11,341 nt of DNA from a virus. Under the pieces are notes generated by a model. That model made no database searches and was not told where the DNA came from. It saw nothing but the letters and a program-made list of their open reading frames with translations. Numbering within the stretch: the stretch's first letter is position 1; each line of letters begins with the position of its first letter. Where the stretch lies: positions 1 through 11,341 of the IMG/VR virus record IMGVR_UViG_3300031812_000267. One strand, given 5' to 3'. Below, piece after piece: positions 135-11,312 of this stretch. The position numbers were made by a program, and so were the translations under genes.

Positions 135-1085
135 TTAGCGCAACCGTGCGAAATCATCCAGTAGATTCCTGTCCTCCCCGGCGTTGAGAATCGACAACCA
201 CTCGTCCGAGTTCAGTAGCGCGAGTACGTCCTCATCCGCAATCTCATCCCAGCCCGACGCGGGATCAACAAAATCATACAACCGCCGCAGCCGGGGAGAC
301 ACCGTCAGATGATGGACGCCGTGCAGCGCGGCCGCATACTCGTAAATGAGGGCAGCGTCAGAGGAGGAACGATAGCGCGCGTAGTCGTAGAGCAATCCAG
401 GATAGGAGCGACCAGCGGGCACCTTGGCCGCAGGATTAGCCGTCTCAAACGCAGCACCCGCAACGCCATCGGTCGTCAAATACCGCGCGACCGCCGCCAC
501 GCCATCATGCGCCACCCGGCGGACATCGGCGCGCCAGTCTGCGCCCGCAACCTGCGACCAGCGCTCCGCAAGCGCGACGGAGACCGGAGTCAAATAGGGG
601 AGCCCGGGGGAGACAAACACGAGCGCGTGGTAGTGCGGGTGCCAGCCCGACACGCCGTGCACGACCTCGAGCGCACGAACGTTGCCGACGTAGTGCGCGC
701 CCAGCACATCACGCCATGCATTCCGAGCGTACCGCCGCCACGTATCGGCAAGCCGGTCGAGGACGACCGGGAGCGCCTCATCGCGTGCGTGGGGCACGGT
801 GTAGGTCGCCAACAGCGCCGAGCCGCCGGCGTCAACGTGCCGGCGCAGGGCCGTCTCGATCTGGCGCGCCCGGCGGATGCCGAGCGTCACACGGCAACTG
901 GGGCAGCGCCAGAAATCGCCACAGCGGTAGAGACCACTATAGGCAGCGCGCCCATCGGGAAGCCGGCGCACGACAACGCCCGACGCGCCGTAGCGGAGCG
1001 CGACGCCACAGAGGGCGAGCCGCTCGCGCGGCATGAGCGCGCGGGCGAGACGGTGGAGATAGGAGGTACACGGCACGTCGGGCAT
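135..1085 (-). CDS. rep: Rolling-circle replication initiator (HUH endonuclease, pC194/pUB110/pIJ101-like Rep_1-type)
   Basis: 316-aa ORF. Motif 1-like LLATYTVPH. HUH motif GWHPHYHALVFV. Candidate catalytic Tyr in VARYLTTDG. N-terminal Cys cluster CGDFWRCPSCRV, as seen in Rep_1-family proteins. No SD precedes the ATG at 1085. Confidence 0.8.
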   Translation of the reverse strand: MPDVPCTSYLHRLARALMPRERLALCGVALRYGASGVVVRRLPDGRAAYSGLYRCGDFWRCPSCRVTLGIRRARQIETALRRHVDAGGSALLATYTVPHARDEALPVVLDRLADTWRRYARNAWRDVLGAHYVGNVRALEVVHGVSGWHPHYHALVFVSPGLPYLTPVSVALAERWSQVAGADWRADVRRVAHDGVAAVARYLTTDGVAGAAFETANPAAKVPAGRSYPGLLYDYARYRSSSDAALIYEYAAALHGVHHLTVSPRLRRLYDFVDPASGWDEIADEDVLALLNSDEWLSILNAGEDRNLLDDFARLR

Positions 1086-1088
1086 ATC

Positions 1089-1119
1089 AATTATCAGGAA
1101 ATTATCAGCAAATTATCAT
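1089..1119. repeat. Three phased direct repeats AATTATCA(G/T) with an 11-bp period (starts 1089, 1100, 1111). A fourth ATTATCA lies at 1160..1166.
   Basis: Read directly: aattatcag gaaattatcag caaattatcat. Sits in the only strongly AT-rich stretch, between divergent rep (ATG 1085) and the plus-strand cassette (ATG 1180). On the minus strand each repeat reads TGATAAT. Confidence 0.85.
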
Positions 1120-1147
1120 TGAAATAGCATCACTCACGTCCTATACT
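1119..1147 (+). promoter_or_regulatory. Sigma-70-like promoter TTGAAA-17 nt-TATACT driving the plus-strand two-gene cassette
   Basis: TTGAAA at 1119..1124, a 17-nt spacer, TATACT at 1142..1147. About 32 nt upstream of ATG 1180, with AAGGAGG at 1167..1173. Confidence 0.6.
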
Positions 1148-3763: not shown

Positions 3764-3864
3764 GCTCGGGCCGGCGCCCTCGCTCGCGGGCGCGCTCCGC
3801 GCGCCCGAGGATGCGCCATTCGGCGCGCCGCCAATCGCGCCGCCGCTCGGGCCGGCGCCCTCGC
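3764..3864. repeat. Internal direct duplication inside the 3656..3968 intergenic region: 20-bp gctcgggccggcgccctcgc at 3764..3783 and 3845..3864
   Basis: Perfect 20-mer read twice, 81 bp apart. Copy B of the dispersed repeat carries only one, hybrid version (gccctcgctcgcagacggcgc). Confidence 0.85.
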
Positions 3865-3977
3865 AGACGGCGCGACGGCTCGTCATCCCGACAGCTCTCC
3901 CGCGCGCGCGCCGTCCGTGGCGCGTGCGGCGGCGCGCGCGCCGACGGCCGCACCCGCCCGCAGCGCGGTTACGCGCC
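3790..3977. repeat. Dispersed GC-rich non-coding repeat, copy A (homologous to 8694..8867). Contains a GC hairpin and overlaps the dcm stop codon.
   Basis: By-eye alignment with copy B. The last 59 nt (3919..3977 vs 8809..8867) match at 54/59 positions. Shared blocks: tcgcagacggcgc, tcatcccga, cgcgcgcgcgcc, gcgcgc..cgcgcgccc.agga. The indels are not multiples of 3. Inverted repeat CGCGCGCGCC(3903..3912)/GGCGCGCGCG(3931..3940). Confidence 0.85.
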
Positions 3978-4925
3978 GCGCAGACTCTCGACAATCGCCT
4001 GCATGACGGGTGGGCAGACCGCATTGCCGAGCAAGCGCATCGCGTCGGTGCGGGTGCATCCATCCAGGACGAACGACGCGGGAAACCCCATCGCGCGCCG
4101 GAGCTCATCCACCTGGAGCATGCGCATCTCATGGCCGCCGCACCGATCCGGTCGCACCAGCGCGAAATGCCCGCGCGTCGTGACCGTCCGGAGCGGCACG
4201 TCCAGCGTCTGCCACTGCGGGCCCGAGCCATAGTAGACGGACAAAAACGTCGCGTCGCGGCCCAACGCCCGGAGCGCACGCTCGACGCGCTCGATCGTCG
4301 CATGGGCGCGGCGCGGCGTACGGAGCGGCGTATACGCATATCCGTCCAGATCGATAACGCGCGCGACCGGTATACGCTCAGACGTGCGCGGCGCGATCCC
4401 GGGCGGATCCGCCTCACGGTCGCAGACGATGTAGAGCCGCCGGCGGCGCTGGGGCACGCCGAAATCGGCCGCGTCCAGGACCTGAACGCGCACACAGTAA
4501 CCCAGATGCATCAGGGCATACAGGAACGCCCAGAAACCATGCCACCGGCGCATCTGGACGACGTTTTCCACGACAATCCAGCGCGGCCGGAACACCCGCG
4601 CGAACGCCCACACGCACCACGGAAGATCCAGACTCTTCTCACACCGCGACCTGGCGCCGCGCGCCGGACTATGGTCCGTGCACGGGGGAGACGCCAGCAG
4701 CAGATCAACAGGACCGAGATCGTCACGAATGGCCCGGACATCAGACTCCGTCAGGATTGCGAGATCGCGCAGATGGAACCGCGCGCGGGGAAAATTCGCC
4801 GCATACACCCGTCCAGCGACCGGCCACACGTCAAACCCAGCGACGATCTCCACACCCGCAGCCATCGCGCCGAGCGAACTCCCACCGGCGCCGCAGAACA
4901 GGTCTATCGCCCGCATGTCATCCAT
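3969..4925 (-). CDS. dcm: DNA (cytosine-5)-methyltransferase
   Basis: All the canonical C5-MTase motifs I checked for are present in order: I DLFCGAGG, IV SPPCTDHS, VI VVENV, VIII GVPQRRRRLYIV, IX-like MLQVDELRRAMGFPASF, X GNAVCPPV. Confidence 0.93.
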   Translation of the reverse strand: MDDMRAIDLFCGAGGSSLGAMAAGVEIVAGFDVWPVAGRVYAANFPRARFHLRDLAILTESDVRAIRDDLGPVDLLLASPPCTDHSPARGARSRCEKSLDLPWCVWAFARVFRPRWIVVENVVQMRRWHGFWAFLYALMHLGYCVRVQVLDAADFGVPQRRRRLYIVCDREADPPGIAPRTSERIPVARVIDLDGYAYTPLRTPRRAHATIERVERALRALGRDATFLSVYYGSGPQWQTLDVPLRTVTTRGHFALVRPDRCGGHEMRMLQVDELRRAMGFPASFVLDGCTRTDAMRLLGNAVCPPVMQAIVESLRGA

Positions 4926-6541: not shown

Positions 6542-6570
6542 AGTATAGCGCGATAGACGCGATGTGTCAA
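6542..6570 (-). promoter_or_regulatory. Near-consensus sigma-70 promoter TTGACA-17 nt-TATACT for the minus-strand operon 6497 -> 3969
   Basis: Reverse complement of 6542..6570 is TTGACAcatcgcgtctatcgcgcTATACT. The -35 overlaps the Zot-like stop codon. The -10 sits in one arm of an 8-bp inverted repeat CTATACTG/CAGTATAG (6541..6548 and 6514..6521). Confidence 0.7.
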
Positions 6571-7208
6571 GCGCGCCGCCGCGCGGGAGCGAGCGAAGGC
6601 GCGGGGGCAGGAGCGGGGAGGATCGCGAGCGTGTCGCCAGCAGACGCGCCGTAGAGCGTGTCGTAGATGCCGTACCAGTCGGAGAGTCGCAGCGCGAACC
6701 GGTAACGCTCCACGAGGACGTCATCGGCGTAGGGATGCTCGTGCCAGCGATACACCGCGTAATCCGCGCCGCTACGACGGTAGCGACCGGCCGTGACGTA
6801 GACGTACTGCGTGAGGCGGCGCAGGCGCACATCGACCGTCGCAAAACTGGGACTGGTGTAGACACAGATGACGCCGCGCTTGCCCCACAGGATCATATCG
6901 CGCGTGAGCGCACGCGCCGCCTCAGACGCCCACTCGCGCGAGTCCAGAGAGACCTGCACCTCGTCCCACACCAGCACCGCGCCGCGCAGCGATGCGAGAT
7001 CGTCGAGCGTGGCCACGCGCCGGGCACCGCGCACGGGAATATTACCGACCAGATCGAGACCGAGGGAGCGGGCGAGGCAAACGGCCAGCCTGCACGCCAT
7101 CAGCGTCTTGCCGCTCCGGAGCGCGCCGAAGACGCCGACGAACGCGCCCAGGTGGTAGCGCTCGAACGGGAGCAGCCGGAGGGGGGGATCAGCGATCACG
7201 ACGCTCAT
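6567..7208 (-). CDS. Zot / pI-like inovirus assembly ATPase (P-loop NTPase), short form (213 aa)
   Basis: Walker A GALRSGKT. DLVGNIPV after it. Walker B-like AVLVWDEVQVSLDSREW, matching the Zot-family pattern (hydrophobic stretch, DE, Q, then R). Located in the structural/assembly part of an inovirus-like genome. No C-terminal TM segment is visible. Confidence 0.75.
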   Translation of the reverse strand: MSVVIADPPLRLLPFERYHLGAFVGVFGALRSGKTLMACRLAVCLARSLGLDLVGNIPVRGARRVATLDDLASLRGAVLVWDEVQVSLDSREWASEAARALTRDMILWGKRGVICVYTSPSFATVDVRLRRLTQYVYVTAGRYRRSGADYAVYRWHEHPYADDVLVERYRFALRLSDWYGIYDTLYGASAGDTLAILPAPAPAPSLAPARRRA

Positions 7209-7494
7209 CGCGACGCCTCACATATTCCTCGAGCGAGAGCGCCCGGAGCGCGTCACGGAGCGTGCGCGACGCGCCGGGAGATTGCCGGATCGCCGATGCC
7301 TCGATGATGGGGGCAATGCGCTCATACAGCCGGGGCGTAGCGATCGAGAGCCACGCGAGCGCCCGCACGCGACCGTCGGAATACCCGACGACGGCACGTG
7401 ACAACGCCGCCGCGAGGGTCGCGCGGGCGTCCAGGAACATCATATCGTCATCACCGAGCGACGGTTGGCGCAGGTAATCGCGTTCGGAGTGCAT
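7189..7494 (-). CDS. Hypothetical 101-aa protein
   Basis: GAGGAGGAG sits immediately upstream of ATG 7494. Its 3' end overlaps the Zot-like start by 20 nt. Confidence 0.65.
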   Translation of the reverse strand: MHSERDYLRQPSLGDDDMMFLDARATLAAALSRAVVGYSDGRVRALAWLSIATPRLYERIAPIIEASAIRQSPGASRTLRDALRALSLEEYVRRRDERRDR

Positions 7495-7539
7495 CCGCTC
7501 CTCCTCTCGTATTCCGTGGCGCTTTTTCAGGCTTCAACC

Positions 7540-7592
7540 CTCCAAACGCGCTCACCCTCGCGCTGCGCGCGACTCGGTTCGCGCGTTTGGAG
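7540..7592. other. Hairpin with a 12-bp perfect stem
   Basis: ctccaaacgcgc (7540..7551) is the exact reverse complement of gcgcgtttggag (7581..7592). The 29-nt loop contains a nested cgcgc/gcgcg stem. Confidence 0.8.
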
Positions 7593-7657
7593 CCGGTTTG
7601 CCCGTACCGGCGAGACAGGCCGTCCGGGCGGCATCACGTTTTTGCGGCGCATTGCGC

Positions 7658-7828
7658 CGGAAAACCGCGCGTAATTGTAGCGTACTGCGCGTACGCGCCG
7701 TCAAGACCTCGCTTCGCTCGCAAGCGCCGGAAAGCGGCGCAACTTTTTTCGGAACAGCGGAAGGCGCCGCTTTCCGGCGGTCTTGACGGCGCTGCGCAGT
7801 ACGCTGAGCCTCCGGCTGCGGTTTTCCG
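7658..7828. other. 171-nt imperfect long hairpin built from four perfect stems (11, 12, 14 and 15 bp)
   Basis: Verified pairings: 7658..7668/7818..7828, 7679..7690/7794..7805, 7695..7708/7779..7792 and 7726..7740/7764..7778. The apical loop 7741..7763 contains a TTTTTT run. Confidence 0.85.
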
Positions 7829-7993
7829 ACAAACAATGCGCGCGCAGGGCGGGCAGGGCAGGGCCGTACCGTCACCCGGTTTGCCGTACCGCTCCGGCGA
7901 GGGCAGGGCGGTGGGCAGGAACCCTGCCCAGGCCGTGCCGGATCGACGCCTGTACCGTCCACGACCGGCGTACTCACGCGGCGCCTGTACCCC

Positions 7994-8227
7994 CTACGCG
8001 CCGGGGGGAGTGGTCCCAGGCAGGGGGTGGGGCAACGCCGAACAGTCGGCACCGGCGGCACGCAGCGTCGCAATCGCCCGGCGGGCGAGCGACACGGAGT
8101 CGGGATCGTCGGCGTCGTAGACGACGCCCCAGACAACACGGCCACCGCACCGTGCCTGGACGAACCAGAGACGCCGGTCCGCCCAGGGCTTCAGCGTCAC
8201 ACGCCAGTCACGTACACCCACACTCAC
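7994..8227 (-). CDS. Hypothetical 77-aa protein
   Basis: The GTG start at 8227 overlaps the upstream stop (GTGA), implying translational coupling. No motif recognised. Confidence 0.5.
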   Translation of the reverse strand: MSVGVRDWRVTLKPWADRRLWFVQARCGGRVVWGVVYDADDPDSVSLARRAIATLRAAGADCSALPHPLPGTTPPGA

Positions 8228-8679: not shown

Positions 8680-8693
8680 CGCTCACCTCACAA

Positions 8694-8867
8694 GCGCGCC
8701 ACGCGCGCCCAAGGAAAGAGCCGTTAACCGCGCCGCTGCTCGCCCTCGCTCGCAGACGGCGCCATGCCTCATCATCCCGATACCCGTACCGCGCGCGCGC
8801 CATCCTTTGGCGCGTGCGGTGGCGCGCGCACCGACGGCCGTACCCGCCCGCAGCGCCGTTCCGCGCC
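8694..8867. repeat. Dispersed GC-rich non-coding repeat, copy B (homologous to 3790..3977). Abuts the stop codon of the 56-aa ORF.
   Basis: See copy A. The hairpin GCGCGCGCC/GGCGCGCGC is conserved with compensating context. Located between the 56-aa ORF stop (8867..8869) and the 151-aa gene start (8679). Confidence 0.85.
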
Positions 8868-9037
8868 TAATCATCGCCGCCGGCGGCGGCGGTCAACCAC
8901 GAGCGCAGCATGACGTACGCCACCGCCAGCTGCACGAGCGCCGCCGGCAACAACCAGCGCGGGAGCCAGAGCGCCGCGGCCGCCGCGAGCGCGAGCCAGA
9001 CGAAAACGTAGAGCGTCGCAACGACGTACTGCATCAT
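8867..9037 (-). CDS. 56-aa hydrophobic membrane peptide (MMQYVVATLYVFVWLALAAAAALWLPRWLLPAALVQLAVAYVMLRSWLTAAAGGDD)
   Basis: The ATG at 9037 overlaps the TGA of the pVI-like gene (TGATGATG). The 160-aa version in the track would overlap the pVI-like gene almost entirely. Confidence 0.5.
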   Translation of the reverse strand: MMQYVVATLYVFVWLALAAAAALWLPRWLLPAALVQLAVAYVMLRSWLTAAAGGDD

Positions 9038-9390
9038 CAGCTCACGAGTACGACACGGCGGATGACCAGCCACGCACGAAACGCGAGACCGACAGTAACG
9101 ATAGCGAGTTGAGCCAGCAGCGCCTGCCGGACGATTCCGGCATACGCGACGTAATCGACCAGCATGTACATGAGCCTCGTGTAATCCACGATACCGCCCA
9201 ACCAGTCGACGATCCAGCGTAACGCCGGAATGGACGGCATGGTCTGCGCGGGATGGAGGAGGGAGTCCATCCAGCCGTTCCAAATCTCGACCAGCGAGTT
9301 CACAAACGAGACAATACCGTTGTAGACGTTCGCCGATGCGTGATCCCACCAGCCGACAATCTTGCTCCAGAAATCCTCGAGCCAGTCCAT
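9037..9390 (-). CDS. pVI-like minor coat / membrane protein (117 aa)
   Basis: Position directly after the pIII-like gene, as in Ff phages. Size is close to pVI (112 aa). Hydrophobic segments (IVSFVNSLVEIW, LLAQLAIVTVGLAFRAWLVI). AGGAG sits 7 nt before ATG 9390 and overlaps the upstream stop. Confidence 0.65.
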   Translation of the reverse strand: MDWLEDFWSKIVGWWDHASANVYNGIVSFVNSLVEIWNGWMDSLLHPAQTMPSIPALRWIVDWLGGIVDYTRLMYMLVDYVAYAGIVRQALLAQLAIVTVGLAFRAWLVIRRVVLVS

Positions 9391-9399
9391 ACGCGACTC

Positions 9400-10887
9400 C
9401 TAGCTCAGCGACCGGAACACGCGCCAGGCGGTCCAGAACACAAAACCCACAACCATCAACGTGACCGGAAGCCGGACGAAATTAAGCACCGGCGACGCGA
9501 CACCCAGAAACCCACACAGACCCAGTATGAAATCCGGGAACGCATCCCGGAACCCATACTCCGGCGCGTCGGCCAGGACGGGGGCGGGCAGATCGCAGAT
9601 ACGCCCAGCCGAGGGCGCGACCGCGCGCCCGAGCGCCTCAAGCCCATCCATCAGATCGCCGACAATCGATCCCTCCCAGGACACATCATCGCCAAGCGGA
9701 GGCGGCGTGACGGGCGCGAGCGTATAGCGGGGCACGGCCGAGGGCGGCTGGTACGGATCGCGGGTTGCGCTGGGAAGCGCGGTCCAGGTCGGCGACGGAG
9801 TAAGCGTCGCGGTCGGCGTGCGCGTCAGCGAGGGCGTGCGCGTGATAGTCGGCGTGCGCGTGCGCGTCGGCGTGCGCGTCACGGTCGGCGTGCGGGTGTC
9901 CAGGGTCGGGGTCGGCGTGCGCGTGCGCGTCGGCGTGCGGGTGACCGTCGGCGTGCGCGTCGGCGTGCGCGTCGCGGTCACCGTCGAAGCGGGCAGCGGA
10001 TCCGACAGGCAAAACCGCGCGCGGCCGTTGCCGGACACCCTCACAACACCCCATCCGTCGAACTGATACGGATAGATGCCCGGTCCGTGATACTCCCCAA
10101 GCCACCACAACGATCCGGACGCCACCTCCATCCAGTACAAGCCTGCGCGGGGAGGGCGGAATATAACGGGAAACTCATCGGTCACATCCTCCCAGTCGGT
10201 GCAATCCACGGAGGGCCCGGGCGTCGCAGTCGGCGAGGGCGACGGCGTCGGCGAGGGCGAGGGCGTCGGCGAGGGCGAGGGCGCGAACGACGAATCCACA
10301 CTCAACCAAACATAGAGCGAGCCGCTCGCGGAACCCGGAACATAGTACCAGCCGGGCCCGACCAACAGGACCAAATTGCCGGGACCACGATCGAAGCGCA
10401 GCACGTCATACCGGCCGGGCCACCACGTGTTATTGAGATAGTCTCGCCAGGGACCCGTCACCCGCTGGTTGTTGTAATCGTACGGATCCCACTGAGCCGT
10501 CCAGTTGTCCAAGTAGTAGCAGAGAGCGGACGAGAACGGGAACCAGCCGTAATCACGCGTGCCGCCCGCGCCGGCATGGTACGCGCCGAATCCGGAAAAA
10601 TGCCACACACCCGCATAGAGCCAGTAACGCCCAGGGCCCGGATCGCCGCACCCCGAGCCGTCCAACAGGATGTACGAGTTAGGAGTCGGCGTCGGGGAGG
10701 GAGTCGGCGTCGGGGAGGGAGTCGGGGTCGGGGAGGGAGTCGGGGTCGGGGAGGGAGTCGGGGTCGGGGAGGGAGCCTGAGCATGCACGGGAAAATCGAC
10801 GCCCAGAACGCACAGGAATATCGTGAATATGAACACCGTGCGCGCACACGAGAACAAGCGTATGCGACGCGGGCGAGTCATCGACAT
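9400..10887 (-). CDS. pIII-like secreted adsorption / minor coat protein with Pro/Thr-rich linkers and a C-terminal membrane anchor
   Basis: Signal-peptide-like N-terminus (MSMTRPRRIRLFSCARTVFIFTIFLCVLGVDFPVHA|QA). Globular Trp/Tyr/Gly-rich domains, each with a Cys pair, are separated by (PTPSPT)n, (SPSPTP)n and (TRTP)n linkers. C-terminal hydrophobic VTLMVVGFVFWTAW. The start is uncertain: ATG 10887, ATG 10881 or GTG 10926. Confidence 0.75.
   Translation of the reverse strand: MSMTRPRRIRLFSCARTVFIFTIFLCVLGVDFPVHAQAPSPTPTPSPTPTPSPTPTPSPTPTPSPTPTPNSYILLDGSGCGDPGPGRYWLYAGVWHFSGFGAYHAGAGGTRDYGWFPFSSALCYYLDNWTAQWDPYDYNNQRVTGPWRDYLNNTWWPGRYDVLRFDRGPGNLVLLVGPGWYYVPGSASGSLYVWLSVDSSFAPSPSPTPSPSPTPSPSPTATPGPSVDCTDWEDVTDEFPVIFRPPRAGLYWMEVASGSLWWLGEYHGPGIYPYQFDGWGVVRVSGNGRARFCLSDPLPASTVTATRTPTRTPTVTRTPTRTRTPTPTLDTRTPTVTRTPTRTRTPTITRTPSLTRTPTATLTPSPTWTALPSATRDPYQPPSAVPRYTLAPVTPPPLGDDVSWEGSIVGDLMDGLEALGRAVAPSAGRICDLPAPVLADAPEYGFRDAFPDFILGLCGFLGVASPVLNFVRLPVTLMVVGFVFWTAWRVFRSLS
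9806..9980. repeat. Coding tandem repeats of 12-bp unit gtcggcgtgcgc (TRTP on the minus strand), including a 63-bp-period duplication (9848..9897 vs 9911..9960)
   Basis: Read directly. Encodes TRTPTRTPTVTRTPTRTRTPT...TRTPTVTRTPTRTRTPTITRTPSLTRTPT. Confidence 0.85.
10229..10282. repeat. Coding tandem repeat, 3 x 18 bp (gtcggcgagggcga(c/g)ggc), encoding (SPSPTP)n
   Basis: Units start at 10229, 10247 and 10265. Confidence 0.85.
10682..10775. repeat. Coding tandem repeat, 5.2 x 18 bp (ggagtcgg(c/g)gtcggggag), encoding (PTPSPT)n directly after the signal peptide
   Basis: Units start at 10682, 10700, 10718, 10736 and 10754. The first two units differ from the last three at one position. Confidence 0.9.
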
Positions 10888-10953
10888 CACAGCATGCAGC
10901 GCGCGCGGGCGCGGCCGGAGCTGCACCCGCAGCGGCGATCCGGAACACGCGAC

Positions 10954-11112
10954 CTAGAACAGATTGACGATGCGACCCAACATCCTGGCACCGAGCGTGA
11001 CGCCGATGGCCAACGCGAGCACGCCCACGAACGGGTTGAAGATACTGGTCGCAGCGTTGAGGATGTCGGTCATCGACGGAGCCGTAAACGCGGGCGGGTT
11101 GTTGAACTGCAT
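10954..11112 (-). CDS. Candidate major coat protein, 52 aa, no signal peptide (Pf3-like class)
   Basis: MQFNNPPAFTAPSMTDILNAATSIFNPFVGVLALAIGVTLGARMLGRIVNLF has a polar N-terminus with Asp, a hydrophobic core of about 20 aa, and a basic C-terminus (R..R). AGGAGG sits 9 nt upstream of ATG 11112. Located immediately upstream of the pIII-like gene. The track's TTG start at 11139 lies upstream of the SD. Confidence 0.65.
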   Translation of the reverse strand: MQFNNPPAFTAPSMTDILNAATSIFNPFVGVLALAIGVTLGARMLGRIVNLF

Positions 11113-11139
11113 AGCCGAAAACCTCCTATTCAACTTCAA

Positions 11140-11229
11140 CTACACAAACAGAGAGACCAGCCGCGCGGCAATGTAGGTCACGATTGCGAGCGCGGCCGGA
11201 TAGAGCACGTCCGACGTCTCTACTACCAT
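11140..11229 (-). CDS. 29-aa peptide MVVETSDVLYPAALAIVTYIAARLVSLFV. Candidate small minor virion protein. Absent from the ORF track.
   Basis: The ATG at 11229 lies inside the end of the preceding 29-codon ORF (CTATGGTAG). TAG at 11140..11142, just before the coat-gene SD. Confidence 0.45.
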   Translation of the reverse strand: MVVETSDVLYPAALAIVTYIAARLVSLFV

Positions 11230-11312
11230 AGCCGACCTACCGACAGCATAAACCGCAACACAACGACGGTAACGACCGCAACCACGAGTATGACGAAGAG
11301 CGACTCAGCCAC
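11223..11312 (-). CDS. 29-aa hydrophobic peptide (M)AESLFVILVVAVVTVVVLRFMLSVGRLW. Candidate small minor virion protein. Crosses the circular closure point.
   Basis: GTG start at 11312 (equivalent to position 42) overlaps the stop of the 35..124 ORF. TAG at 11223..11225. Almost entirely hydrophobic with a basic end. Confidence 0.45.
   Translation of the reverse strand: MAESLFVILVVAVVTVVVLRFMLSVGRLW

Follow-up and report, generated by a model that had tools for sequence, protein, structure and literature searches.

The window considered here, meaning the whole 11,341-nucleotide (nt) stretch of IMG/VR virus record IMGVR_UViG_3300031812_000267, contains a 499-nt gap at 7495-7993 between a gene for a 77-amino-acid (aa) protein (p77) and an operon that begins with a 101-aa gene (p101) and includes a Zot-like ATPase gene (p101-zot). 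The gap is a conserved non-coding module comprising a GGTAC-rich structured repeat unit, a branched hairpin of ~200 nt and a small, highly conserved hairpin referred to below as hairpin 3. On sequence grounds, the branched hairpin can plausibly be read as an RNA-polymerase-dependent single-strand origin (complementary-strand origin) of the Ff ori(-)/sso/Frpo type, and it would likely also act as the p101-zot promoter. This is the reading favored here, tentatively and as something short of probable. The coordinates of the module and its surroundings are collected in Table 1.

The gap is structured well beyond chance. Folded as single-stranded DNA (ssDNA), 7495-7993 reaches -161.8 kcal/mol on the plus strand and -161.2 kcal/mol on the minus strand, as compared with -124.5 +/- 5.1 and -128.2 +/- 4.8 kcal/mol for dinucleotide shuffles, none of which (0/100) folded as well. 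The corresponding z-scores are -7.3 and -6.8, or 37 and 33 kcal/mol better than the shuffles. When the whole window is folded in sliding segments of 200 nt with a correction for GC content, 7651-7850 is the strongest outlier on both strands (-5.4 and -4.9 standard deviations). The three-base GC periodicity of the neighboring genes collapses from ~7500 to ~8050, and the gaps of relatives measure 461 to 902 nt, the differences being block insertions and swaps with no regard for a reading frame. Together, the loss of periodicity and the excess of folding over shuffles indicate a gap that is non-coding and structured beyond chance. An earlier note on this DNA, made from the letters alone, had described the gap as non-coding and dominated by long stems, and its account of the individual stems is largely borne out. 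The 12-bp perfect stem joining 7540-7551 to 7581-7592 is present and extends to 17 nt at 88%, and the stem-loop with the core CGGCGC-att-GCGCCG is found at 7645-7659. For the composite hairpin at 7658-7828, the stems of 11, 12 and 14 bp were correctly placed, and the stem given as 15 bp is one of 16 bp. The T-rich apical loop attributed to it exists on the plus strand only; on the gene-sense strand the loop is A-rich and opens with a conserved CTTCCGC. The composite hairpin is in fact branched, with two apical arms and an asymmetric internal loop that contains a 4-bp mini-hairpin, and can reach ~7643-7846.

Relatives were collected by protein-anchored searches that returned five IMG/VR contigs and 80 metagenome loci at 75-98% identity. 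Forty-one distinct gap versions and the distant relatives gave 45 elements for scanning, of which 43 were complete enough to fold (the 41 distinct intergenic regions plus two distant loci, L090 and L094); L006 was folded separately, and L049 is truncated at the start of its contig. All 43 foldable elements contain the branched hairpin, and L006 and L049 have the same layout. On the sense (minus) strand, a common plan is shared: one to four units of ~150-155 nt starting with GGCGCGTAGGGGGTAC, the branched hairpin, a GGTAC box, hairpin 3 and a leader of ~50 nt. One copy of the module is found per genome, and it is always present in the relatives surveyed. At least five sequence types (A, B, C, D and E) can be told apart, with outer and middle stems that are unrelated in sequence and a layout that is identical. 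Type A is that of the window and type A' is the same form without arm 1, the larger of the two apical arms. Types B and C have wholly different outer and middle stems and a different arm 2. The distant forms are type D (L094, a metagenome-assembled contig from NCBI), type E (L006 and L049) and the form found in L090.

Covariation was examined in an alignment of 22 sequences of types A and A' and the L090 form. Within it, 96.9% of cells are paired and 19 pairs have changed on both sides. None of 500 shuffles did as well, and sliding the partners by one to three columns lowered the paired fraction to 33-46%. The middle stem covaries strongly, with five pairs showing 6-10 double changes each. The mini-hairpin also covaries (GC, CG and AU at pair 35:43), and in types C and D and in L090 a mini-hairpin of another sequence occupies the same place. 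In type C the inner stem bears a compensatory change from A-T to G-C (TCGAGACC/GGTCTCGA). The view of the earlier note that these structures matter in a single-stranded nucleic acid is thereby upheld, since compensatory evolution has kept them beyond chance across many related genomes. On the sense strand, G.T wobbles outnumber A.C mismatches by 64 cells to 16.

What remains constant across the types is a small set of sequences at fixed places in the fold. These are T[T/C]GAC in the 3' arm of the inner stem, where TCGAC occurs in type C only and is matched by a compensatory change in the opposite arm; [T/C]A[C/G/T]AAT in the internal loop, on its 3' side; and CTTCCGC at the opening of the arm-1 loop. 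The first two resemble the -35 and -10 hexamers of a promoter and read TTGACG and TACAAT in the window, while the -10 equivalents of types B, C, D and E are CACAAT, CATAAT, TAGAAT or TACAAT. The pattern T[TC]GAC-N16-21-[TC]AnAAT is found on the sense strand of all 45 elements and on the antisense strand of none (0/45), and it occurs once in the whole window against 0.04 occurrences expected. In partition-function folds, every position of the -35-like hexamer is paired throughout, and for the -10-like hexamer the unpaired probability averages 0.38-0.87. The earlier note had suggested a complementary-strand origin in the style of the Ff phages, and a conserved promoter look-alike within the fold fits that idea at the level of sequence.

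The spacing between the hexamers is of particular interest. Types A and A' and L090 have 19-20 nt along the strand; L015 and types B, C, D and E have 16-17 nt. Once folded, the spacer of types A, A' and C and of L090 consists of 16 paired nt, the extra 3-4 nt of type A forming a bulge; in types B and D there are 11-14 paired nt plus a symmetric internal loop, and the opposite arm measures 16-17 nt. The modeled folds are thus suggestive of a promoter-like geometry that is near-constant in the folded strand and not in the duplex. A consensus promoter scan of the region found nothing, as the type A spacer is 19 nt long. A scan with the pattern GGCGCCTTCCGC-N-GCGCC gave only chance matches, the pattern being too loose.

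A mechanism can be proposed from this arrangement. Once the viral strand is single-stranded, the branched hairpin would build a promoter look-alike in which the -35-like TTGACG sits in perfect duplex near the apex and is followed by ~16 stacked base pairs. Next would come the -10-like TACAAT in the internal loop, most of which stays unpaired since the facing side forms a mini-hairpin by itself, and then the outer stem, which has a higher AT content than the other parts and would be transcribed first. The host RNA polymerase holoenzyme would bind this pre-melted look-alike and leave the hairpin at its base, with the 5' arm and, after it, the repeat unit serving as template. A short RNA of plus-strand polarity, beginning at about 7815-7825, would result and would act as primer for the complementary strand. 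In the replicative form, which is double-stranded, transcription of the p101-zot operon would probably be driven by these hexamers too. Accessory roles would fall to the repeat unit and hairpin 3, which are candidates for a packaging signal or for protein binding. The strand concerned is the minus strand, which is the gene-sense strand and is T-rich. Known inoviruses are the model for regarding it as the packaged viral strand, given that nearly all convincing genes are read on it and that it is T-rich.

Much of what is expected of a single-strand origin is found in this element: it lies in the non-coding DNA of a rolling-circle replicon, its secondary structure has been selected, and -35 and -10 look-alikes stand within the fold. 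In terms of orientation, the hexamers and most of the G.T wobbles are on the gene-sense strand, the presumed packaged strand. The minus-strand origin of the Ff phages (M13, f1 and fd) consists of hairpins B and C of their intergenic region and is read by host RNA polymerase. The window element resembles it in being a non-coding hairpin of the strand thought to be packaged, within a multi-hairpin intergenic module, and in the proposed use of an RNA polymerase promoter look-alike that gives a short primer. The two differ in that no sequence similarity is seen, a single branched hairpin of ~200 nt takes the place of two adjacent ones, the -10-like hexamer is held in a fixed internal loop, and the element lies between assembly-side genes instead of beside the plus origin or rep. 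The genome of the window is also high in GC and has a Rep_1-type initiator, unlike the gpII-type initiator of Ff.

Plasmids offer a second point of comparison. The single-strand origins (sso) of rolling-circle plasmids fold into a large structure and are primed by RNA polymerase; they are orientation-specific, flexibly placed and often separated from rep by gene cassettes (PMC5703833). The window element is like ssoA, ssoU, ssoT and ssoW in being flexible in its position relative to rep and separable from it by gene cassettes, and it would be like them in being strand- and orientation-specific and primed by RNA polymerase (PMC5703833); it also belongs to a Rep_1-family replicon and has a folded size of ~160-200 nt. 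Unlike them, it is branched and resides in a phage, contains neither RSB nor CS-6, and has no similarity in PLSDB. The F plasmid and many rolling-circle sso elements fold into a structure that is read as a promoter, the short RNA being a primer (PMC4595007), and the Frpo hairpin mimics double-stranded DNA and carries -35 and -10 elements (PMC11541004). The likeness of the window element to Frpo/ssi would lie in such a duplex mimic with -35 and -10, read by RNA polymerase on ssDNA and able to give primer RNA (PMC11541004; PMC4595007). It would extend to the placement of the -35 near the apex and the -10 near the base, so that the polymerase would exit via the base. In contrast to Frpo, the folded strand of the window is the coding-sense one, so RNA copied from the hairpin would run antisense to the genes upstream and would act as a primer only and not as an early mRNA. 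The sequences are unrelated as well, and the window element belongs to a phage and not to a plasmid leading region.

A third comparison is with Propionibacterium phage B5 (Paulinoviridae, Bifilivirus), the closest cultured phage by Rep. It is a filamentous phage, which the replicon of the window resembles, and has all of its genes on one strand. It has a high-GC Gram-positive host, and a single strong hairpin of ~100 nt is a further likeness. It differs in its size of 5.8 kb and in having almost no intergenic DNA, no comparable module and no DNA similarity. The strongest hairpin of phage B5 lies at the end of Orf8, just upstream of rep, and a hexamer scan found no promoter-like hexamers in it.

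In function, the window element is inferentially like the known RNA-polymerase-primed single-strand origins. It would be set apart from them by its branched design, the looped-out -10, the spacing encoded in the fold, and its travel as a cassette with a p77-like open reading frame (ORF) and repeats of variable number. To our knowledge, complementary-strand origins and packaging signals have been mapped for few filamentous phages, essentially Ff, and for none of the many uncultivated inoviruses known from metagenomes. The module offers one inovirus family a covariation-backed prediction of the nucleotides that would contact RNA polymerase, of the primer start, and of the natural variants that are tolerated (arm 1 deleted, hairpin 3 deleted, one to four repeat units). 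It would also supply a searchable rule for other ssDNA replicons, namely a -35 in a stem, ~16 stacked pairs, and a -10 in a loop opposite a mini-hairpin. If that rule were true, the conserved property of a promoter could be its geometry in the fold, with a linear spacing free to drift from 16 to 20 nt. Such a module may be useful for phagemid or ssDNA-production vectors in high-GC hosts.

Several points weigh against the single-strand origin. The hexamers would be equally conserved as an ordinary duplex promoter of the downstream genes, and five of the six spacing classes already have a duplex-compatible linear spacer of 16-17 nt. The rule of constant folded spacing was noticed post hoc from predicted minimum-energy folds and is clean only in types A, A' and C and in L090. 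Only 11-14 nt of the spacer are paired in types B and D, and the CACAAT of type B is partly paired in its best fold, with an unpaired probability of 0.39. Tolerance of a spacer bulge by RNA polymerase is an assumption of the model. The packaged strand is presumed from gene orientation and T-richness, and the 64 to 16 excess of G.T wobbles over A.C mismatches is dominated by a few invariant columns. The landmarks of ssoA are also absent. CS-6 of ssoA is TAGCGA/T in a terminal loop (PMC10378824), while the TAGCGT of the gap (7678-7683) is on the plus, antisense strand only and lies in a stem next to the complement of the -10; membership in the ssoA subtype was rejected.

The main rival is an ordinary control region in duplex DNA, which is judged unlikely yet carries the most weight of the alternatives. 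TTGACG...TACAAT would then be the promoter of p101-zot or of another downstream gene, the hairpins would act on read-through RNA (by RNase III-type processing, or as a stabilizer, a barrier or part of a 5' untranslated region), and the GGTAC boxes would be operators. A gene of the same orientation does follow the element in every lineage (p101; a 76-aa ORF in L090; an ORF and rep in L094), the hexamers are confined to the sense strand, and types B, C, D and E have a linear spacer of 16-17 nt. The sense-strand G.T wobbles suit RNA as well as DNA, hairpin 3 would fall in the 5' untranslated region, and the GGTAC boxes are enriched and co-oriented. However, about half of the elements (A, A' and L090) have a spacer of 19-20 nt, which is poor for a sigma-70-type promoter and left the consensus scan empty. 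A duplex promoter also gives no reason for the -10 to lie in the sole large internal loop across five unrelated types, nor for a mini-hairpin to be kept opposite it. As for a role in RNA, no U-tract follows any hairpin on the sense strand, and a scan against all Rfam families at a permissive threshold gave no match. A packaging signal is improbable as the main function, though it may coexist with a single-strand origin. By analogy with hairpin A, the packaging signal of the Ff intergenic region, the long hairpin, hairpin 3 or the units would stay free of ssDNA-binding protein, and the assembly machinery would start extrusion there; the link that the earlier note drew to the Ff packaging hairpin is likewise an analogy. 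The unit, the branched hairpin and hairpin 3 are all of a size that would serve, although packaging signals have no defining sequence rule. In favor of this reading are the length and imperfect pairing of the hairpins, which occupy the sole large non-coding region of a genome of the filamentous-phage kind, and the retention of the module with the assembly genes (Zot, p101, p151 and coat) in L090, where the replication and integration genes differ. Hairpin 3 is, moreover, almost invariant across lineages whose Zot proteins are only 56% identical. Set against this, hairpin 3 is missing from the natural variants L001 and L057, the copy number of the unit varies from one to four, and the conserved -35/-10 look-alike is left unexplained.

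The remaining two alternatives carry less weight still. It is very improbable that the module is the double-strand (plus-strand) origin, where Rep would nick in or near the hairpin after cruciform extrusion and the GGTAC repeats would be Rep-binding iterons. The sequence GTCTTGAC resembles CTTGATA, the Rep_1 nick consensus (PMC10378824), and the direct repeats look like iterons. In minimal relatives such as L001 and L004, rep has no intergenic region before it, which leaves the gap as their only sizeable non-coding region, and in L094 the hairpin lies just upstream of rep. The TTGAC is nonetheless buried in the middle of a perfect stem instead of in an exposed loop, and type C has CTCGAC with a compensatory change in the partner (CTCGAC/TCGAG), which indicates that pairing has been selected and not a nick sequence. 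The module is also fully conserved in L090-L093, where no Rep_1 is detectable. On the last two counts, GTCTTGAC was ruled out as the Rep_1 nick site. Better candidates lie close to rep, in the form of CTTGATA in L094, CTTGTTAATTAATAC in L006, L015 and L049, and three repeats with TGATAATT in the window. Least credible of all is a recombination site or selfish insert, that is, a folded attP like the CTX-phage attP hairpin, or a palindrome resembling a miniature inverted-repeat transposable element (MITE) and devoid of phage function. The unit of p77-like ORF and module is indeed found at different places in related genomes, and the 11-bp stem, unpaired center and 12-bp stem superficially recall a forked recombination site. 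Against both forms of the idea, the stems differ freely between types, which excludes a match to any single host site; in L090, an integrated prophage, the module is internal and the host junction lies elsewhere (8983-9360); and there is exactly one copy per genome, always present, unlike a parasitic insert. No copy was found in 185,579 reference genomes (by a search with hairpin 3), in plasmids or in other phages. A CTX-phage-type folded attP for XerCD was rejected for the same variation of arms among types, internal position in L090 and want of host copies. Zot-like protein relatives are likewise absent from the 185,579 reference genomes; with neither these nor a hairpin 3 copy in that set, the MITE and attP ideas gain no support.

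Returning to the single-strand origin, its location is informative. The earlier note had placed the element amid the assembly genes and apart from an origin close to rep. Both statements stand in part. The location amid assembly genes is true of the window and is not a fixed property, since the module follows a transposase-like gene in L090 and precedes rep in L094. In L090-L093, where Zot is 56% identical to that of the window, the homologues of p151, p101 and Zot are contiguous without a gap, and the unit, branched hairpin and hairpin 3 are found elsewhere, at ~75-95% identity in the boxes. There the module comes after a DDE-transposase-like gene and an 85-aa p77-like ORF and before an unrelated ORF. 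No Rep_1 is detectable in these loci by tblastn at E <= 10. The module is not tied to one replication protein or one neighboring gene: its presence in L090-L093 without Rep_1 and at another position shows that it is not bound to Rep_1 and argues against a plus-strand origin. This independence fits an element read by host machinery or by conserved assembly machinery. A bolder proposal is that of a relocatable single-strand origin cassette, consisting of a p77-like ORF, GGTAC repeats of variable number and the branched hairpin, which this clade of high-GC filamentous phages would move between positions and keep despite swaps of replication or integration genes. Its core would represent a new class of RNA-polymerase-dependent origin, with the -10 as a permanent bubble held by the template-side mini-hairpin and the geometry encoded in the fold. 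This proposal deserves consideration but is doubtful at present.

The separation of the element from rep is confirmed, at ~6.4 kb; for the window, the double-strand origin close to rep is no more than plausible, as no exact CTTGATA occurs there. Within 7495-7993 there is none even with one mismatch. A Rep_1-type nick motif is found close to rep in relatives, and in the window it takes a degenerate, repeated form close to rep (Table 1), which is a candidate Rep_1 double-strand origin on the basis of its sequence. In L094, where only the branched hairpin is present, in front of rep, an exact CTTGATA followed by ATTAATAC lies between hairpin and rep, ~100 nt upstream of rep; in L006, L015 and L049, CTTGTTAATTAATAC is next to rep. 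The sequence TTGATAAT (1162-1172) was also considered as a nick site and was rejected, being not conserved and the complement of the ribosome-binding region of a plus-strand ORF.

Table 1. Features of the window and of the intergenic module, in order of position where coordinates are given
Feature	Position	Strand	Basis or remark
Rep_1 (PF01446) rolling-circle initiator	135-1085	-	Domain match
Three 11-nt direct repeats (A/C)TGATAATTT, containing TGATAATT	1088-1120	-	Immediately upstream of the rep ATG
C5 DNA methyltransferase, PAPS-reductase-like protein, N6/N4 methyltransferase	Between small ORFs and rep	-	Gene order
Several small ORFs	After the P-loop gene in gene order	-	Gene order
213-aa Zot/pI-like P-loop ATPase	6567-7208	-	Homologues P0078 and P0079 carry PF05707 (Zot)
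101-aa gene (p101)	7189-7494	-	Start of the operon downstream of the gap (operon span 6567-7494)
Leader	7495-7539	-	Shine-Dalgarno GGAGGAG before the 101-aa gene; weaker promoter-like pair TTGAAG ... GAATAC
Hairpin 3	7540-7592	-	12-bp stem, 3-bp helix, 6-bp stem with GCA loop; 53 nt
Fifth GGTAC box CGGTACGGGCAAACCGG	7593-7609	-	Direct repeat of 7875-7891; kept in nearly all relatives
Extended branched hairpin (core)	7643-7846	-	Composite hairpin 7658-7828 plus outer extension GCGCATTG/CAATGCGC
Palindrome CGGCGCAATGCGCCG	7645-7659	-	Local 6-bp hairpin, or else outer extension of the branched hairpin (alternative folds)
11-bp outer stem, sense-strand 3' arm	7658-7668, partner 7818-7828	-	Pairs covary: CGGAAAACCGC vs CCAAAAAACCGC
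-10-like hexamer TACAAT	7674-7679	-	3' side of internal loop; invariant in type A
12-bp middle stem	7679-7690, partner 7794-7805	-	Most of the spacer between the hexamers
14-bp inner stem	7695-7708, partner 7779-7792	-	Holds -35-like TTGACG at 7699-7704
Apical arm 2	7708-7724	-	5-bp hairpin CTTGC-gagcgaa-GCGAG; invariant in alignment
Apical arm 1	7725-7779	-	16-bp perfect stem 7725-7740/7764-7779; 23-nt loop opening with CTTCCGC
Mini-hairpin AGCC-gga-GGCT	7806-7817	-	Fills 5' side of internal loop, opposite the -10-like hexamer
Structured repeat unit, ~155 nt, one copy	7846-8002	-	Relatives carry 1-4 tandem copies (72 unit copies compared)
Repeat-unit opening box GGCGCGTAGGGGGTAC	7987-8002	-	Contains the TAG stop codon of the upstream 77-aa gene
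77-aa gene (p77)	7994-8227	-	Directly upstream of the gap 7495-7993
117- and 151-aa proteins	Between the 508-aa gene and the gap	-	Gene order
508-aa protein with long Pro-Thr/Pro-Ser repeat linkers	9400-10926	-	gIII-like position (adsorption protein)
61-aa hydrophobic coat-like protein	10954-11139	-	Hydrophobic ORF; two tiny hydrophobic ORFs precede

Arm 1 is naturally deleted in seven relatives (type A'), and in types B and C a longer hairpin replaces arm 2. Hairpin 3 is almost invariant in sequence, even in the distant L090, and covaries at three places (A-T to C-G; ACC/GGT to ACT/AGT; TCGCGC/GCGCGA to TCGCAC/GTGCGA). It is deleted in L001 and L057. The loss of hairpin 3 in two variants and of arm 1 in seven indicates that neither is indispensable. 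An intrinsic terminator was considered for the region and rejected, since the single terminator-like match is on the plus strand inside arm 1 and none is found on the sense strand.

The repeat unit carries four GGTAC boxes and a local hairpin, GGGCAGG-gtt-CCTGCCC. In most relatives its box GGCGCGTAGG pairs with CCTACGCGCC ~70 nt downstream, with T-A, T.G and C-G states observed. The box that opens the unit also encodes the stop codon and the last three codons of p77 (P-G-A-stop), and the 85-aa ORF of L090 ends likewise. That ORF is a weak homologue of p77 (E = 2e-5) and precedes the same module; otherwise, only close homologues of p77 were found. An AlphaFold model of p77 (pLDDT 87.8) has three strands and one helix, and no PDB fold matched it below E = 0.1. 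In terms of composition, the 499-nt gap has nine occurrences of GTAC where 1.7 would be expected. The minus strand of the genome has 12 GGTAC sites; five of them, all co-oriented, are in the gap, and other sites include 8786 and 8840. Since the genome encodes C5 and N6/N4 DNA methyltransferases, the GGTAC/GTAC sites could be methylation sites, or they could be protein-binding sites.

Of the metagenome contigs with a cut in the intergenic region, about half start within the branched hairpin, several of them exactly at the arm-1 loop (5' ends were noted for L001, L016, L019, L021, L024, L029, L034, L035, L041, L043, L046, L055, L059, L066, L074, L075, L085 and L089), and several other contigs begin inside hairpin 3. 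Their position at hairpin apices is the reason for reading them as breaks made by the assembler at palindromes and not as real molecular ends. One apparent relative, L007, was dropped, as its 16-mer match inside an ORF of a 35-kb contig is a chance match.

The replicon itself is filamentous-phage-like (inovirus-type by the criteria of Tubulavirales) as judged from its sequence. The first and last 71 nt of the window are identical, which makes it a circular contig of 11,270 bp, and nearly all convincing genes lie on the minus strand in a survey of the ORFs and genes of the window. The circular form, the Zot/pI ATPase, the Rep_1 initiator, the hydrophobic coat-like ORFs and the genes on one strand all belong to this description. 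It is drawn in particular from the Zot/pI domain in relatives of the P-loop protein and from the likeness of Rep to that of phage B5. Of 83 database relatives of the P-loop protein, two, at 60-66% identity, carry the Zot/pI domain PF05707. Among cultured phages, Rep is closest to the Rep of phage B5, with 28% identity over 93% of its length in the window. No DNA similarity to the whole window or to the intergenic region was found in GenBank phages or in PLSDB plasmids, and a tRNA search of the window found none.

Some features of the surrounding genome merit mention. The stretch between the rep stop codon and the coat-like gene (1-134 and 11140-11270, minus strand) holds two very small hydrophobic ORFs, one of 29 aa (MEYERAVLQLLVYGVTLFMLYAVDRWYRG) and the other of ~20 aa, which occupy the gVII/gIX position of Ff phages. 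The linkers of the 508-aa gene are visible in the DNA as an 18-nt periodic repeat at 9767-10004. Two protein-like ORFs on the plus strand (1180-1404 and 1365-1658) diverge from rep. This pair is missing in relatives such as L001, L004 and L011, where rep directly follows the PAPS-reductase-like gene, and is a swappable module, possibly with a regulatory role. Among the distant loci, L090 (1-9360) encodes an HTH_26 repressor-like gene and a 464-aa protein with weak similarity to an integrase core (rve). The L090 phage is integrated in a genome of ~57% GC, where its neighbors are a glycoside-hydrolase-like gene and gyrA. L091 contains a tandem copy with a unit of ~9.5 kb. Lastly, two very GC-rich direct copies of ~190 nt that are 86% identical are located at 3780-3985 and 8685-8875, and both are kept in relatives. 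One is located after the C5 methyltransferase gene, the other before the 151-aa gene; periodicity was examined for the copy at 8685-8875 only, which lies in a stretch without codon periodicity. These copies may be another regulatory or recombination module.

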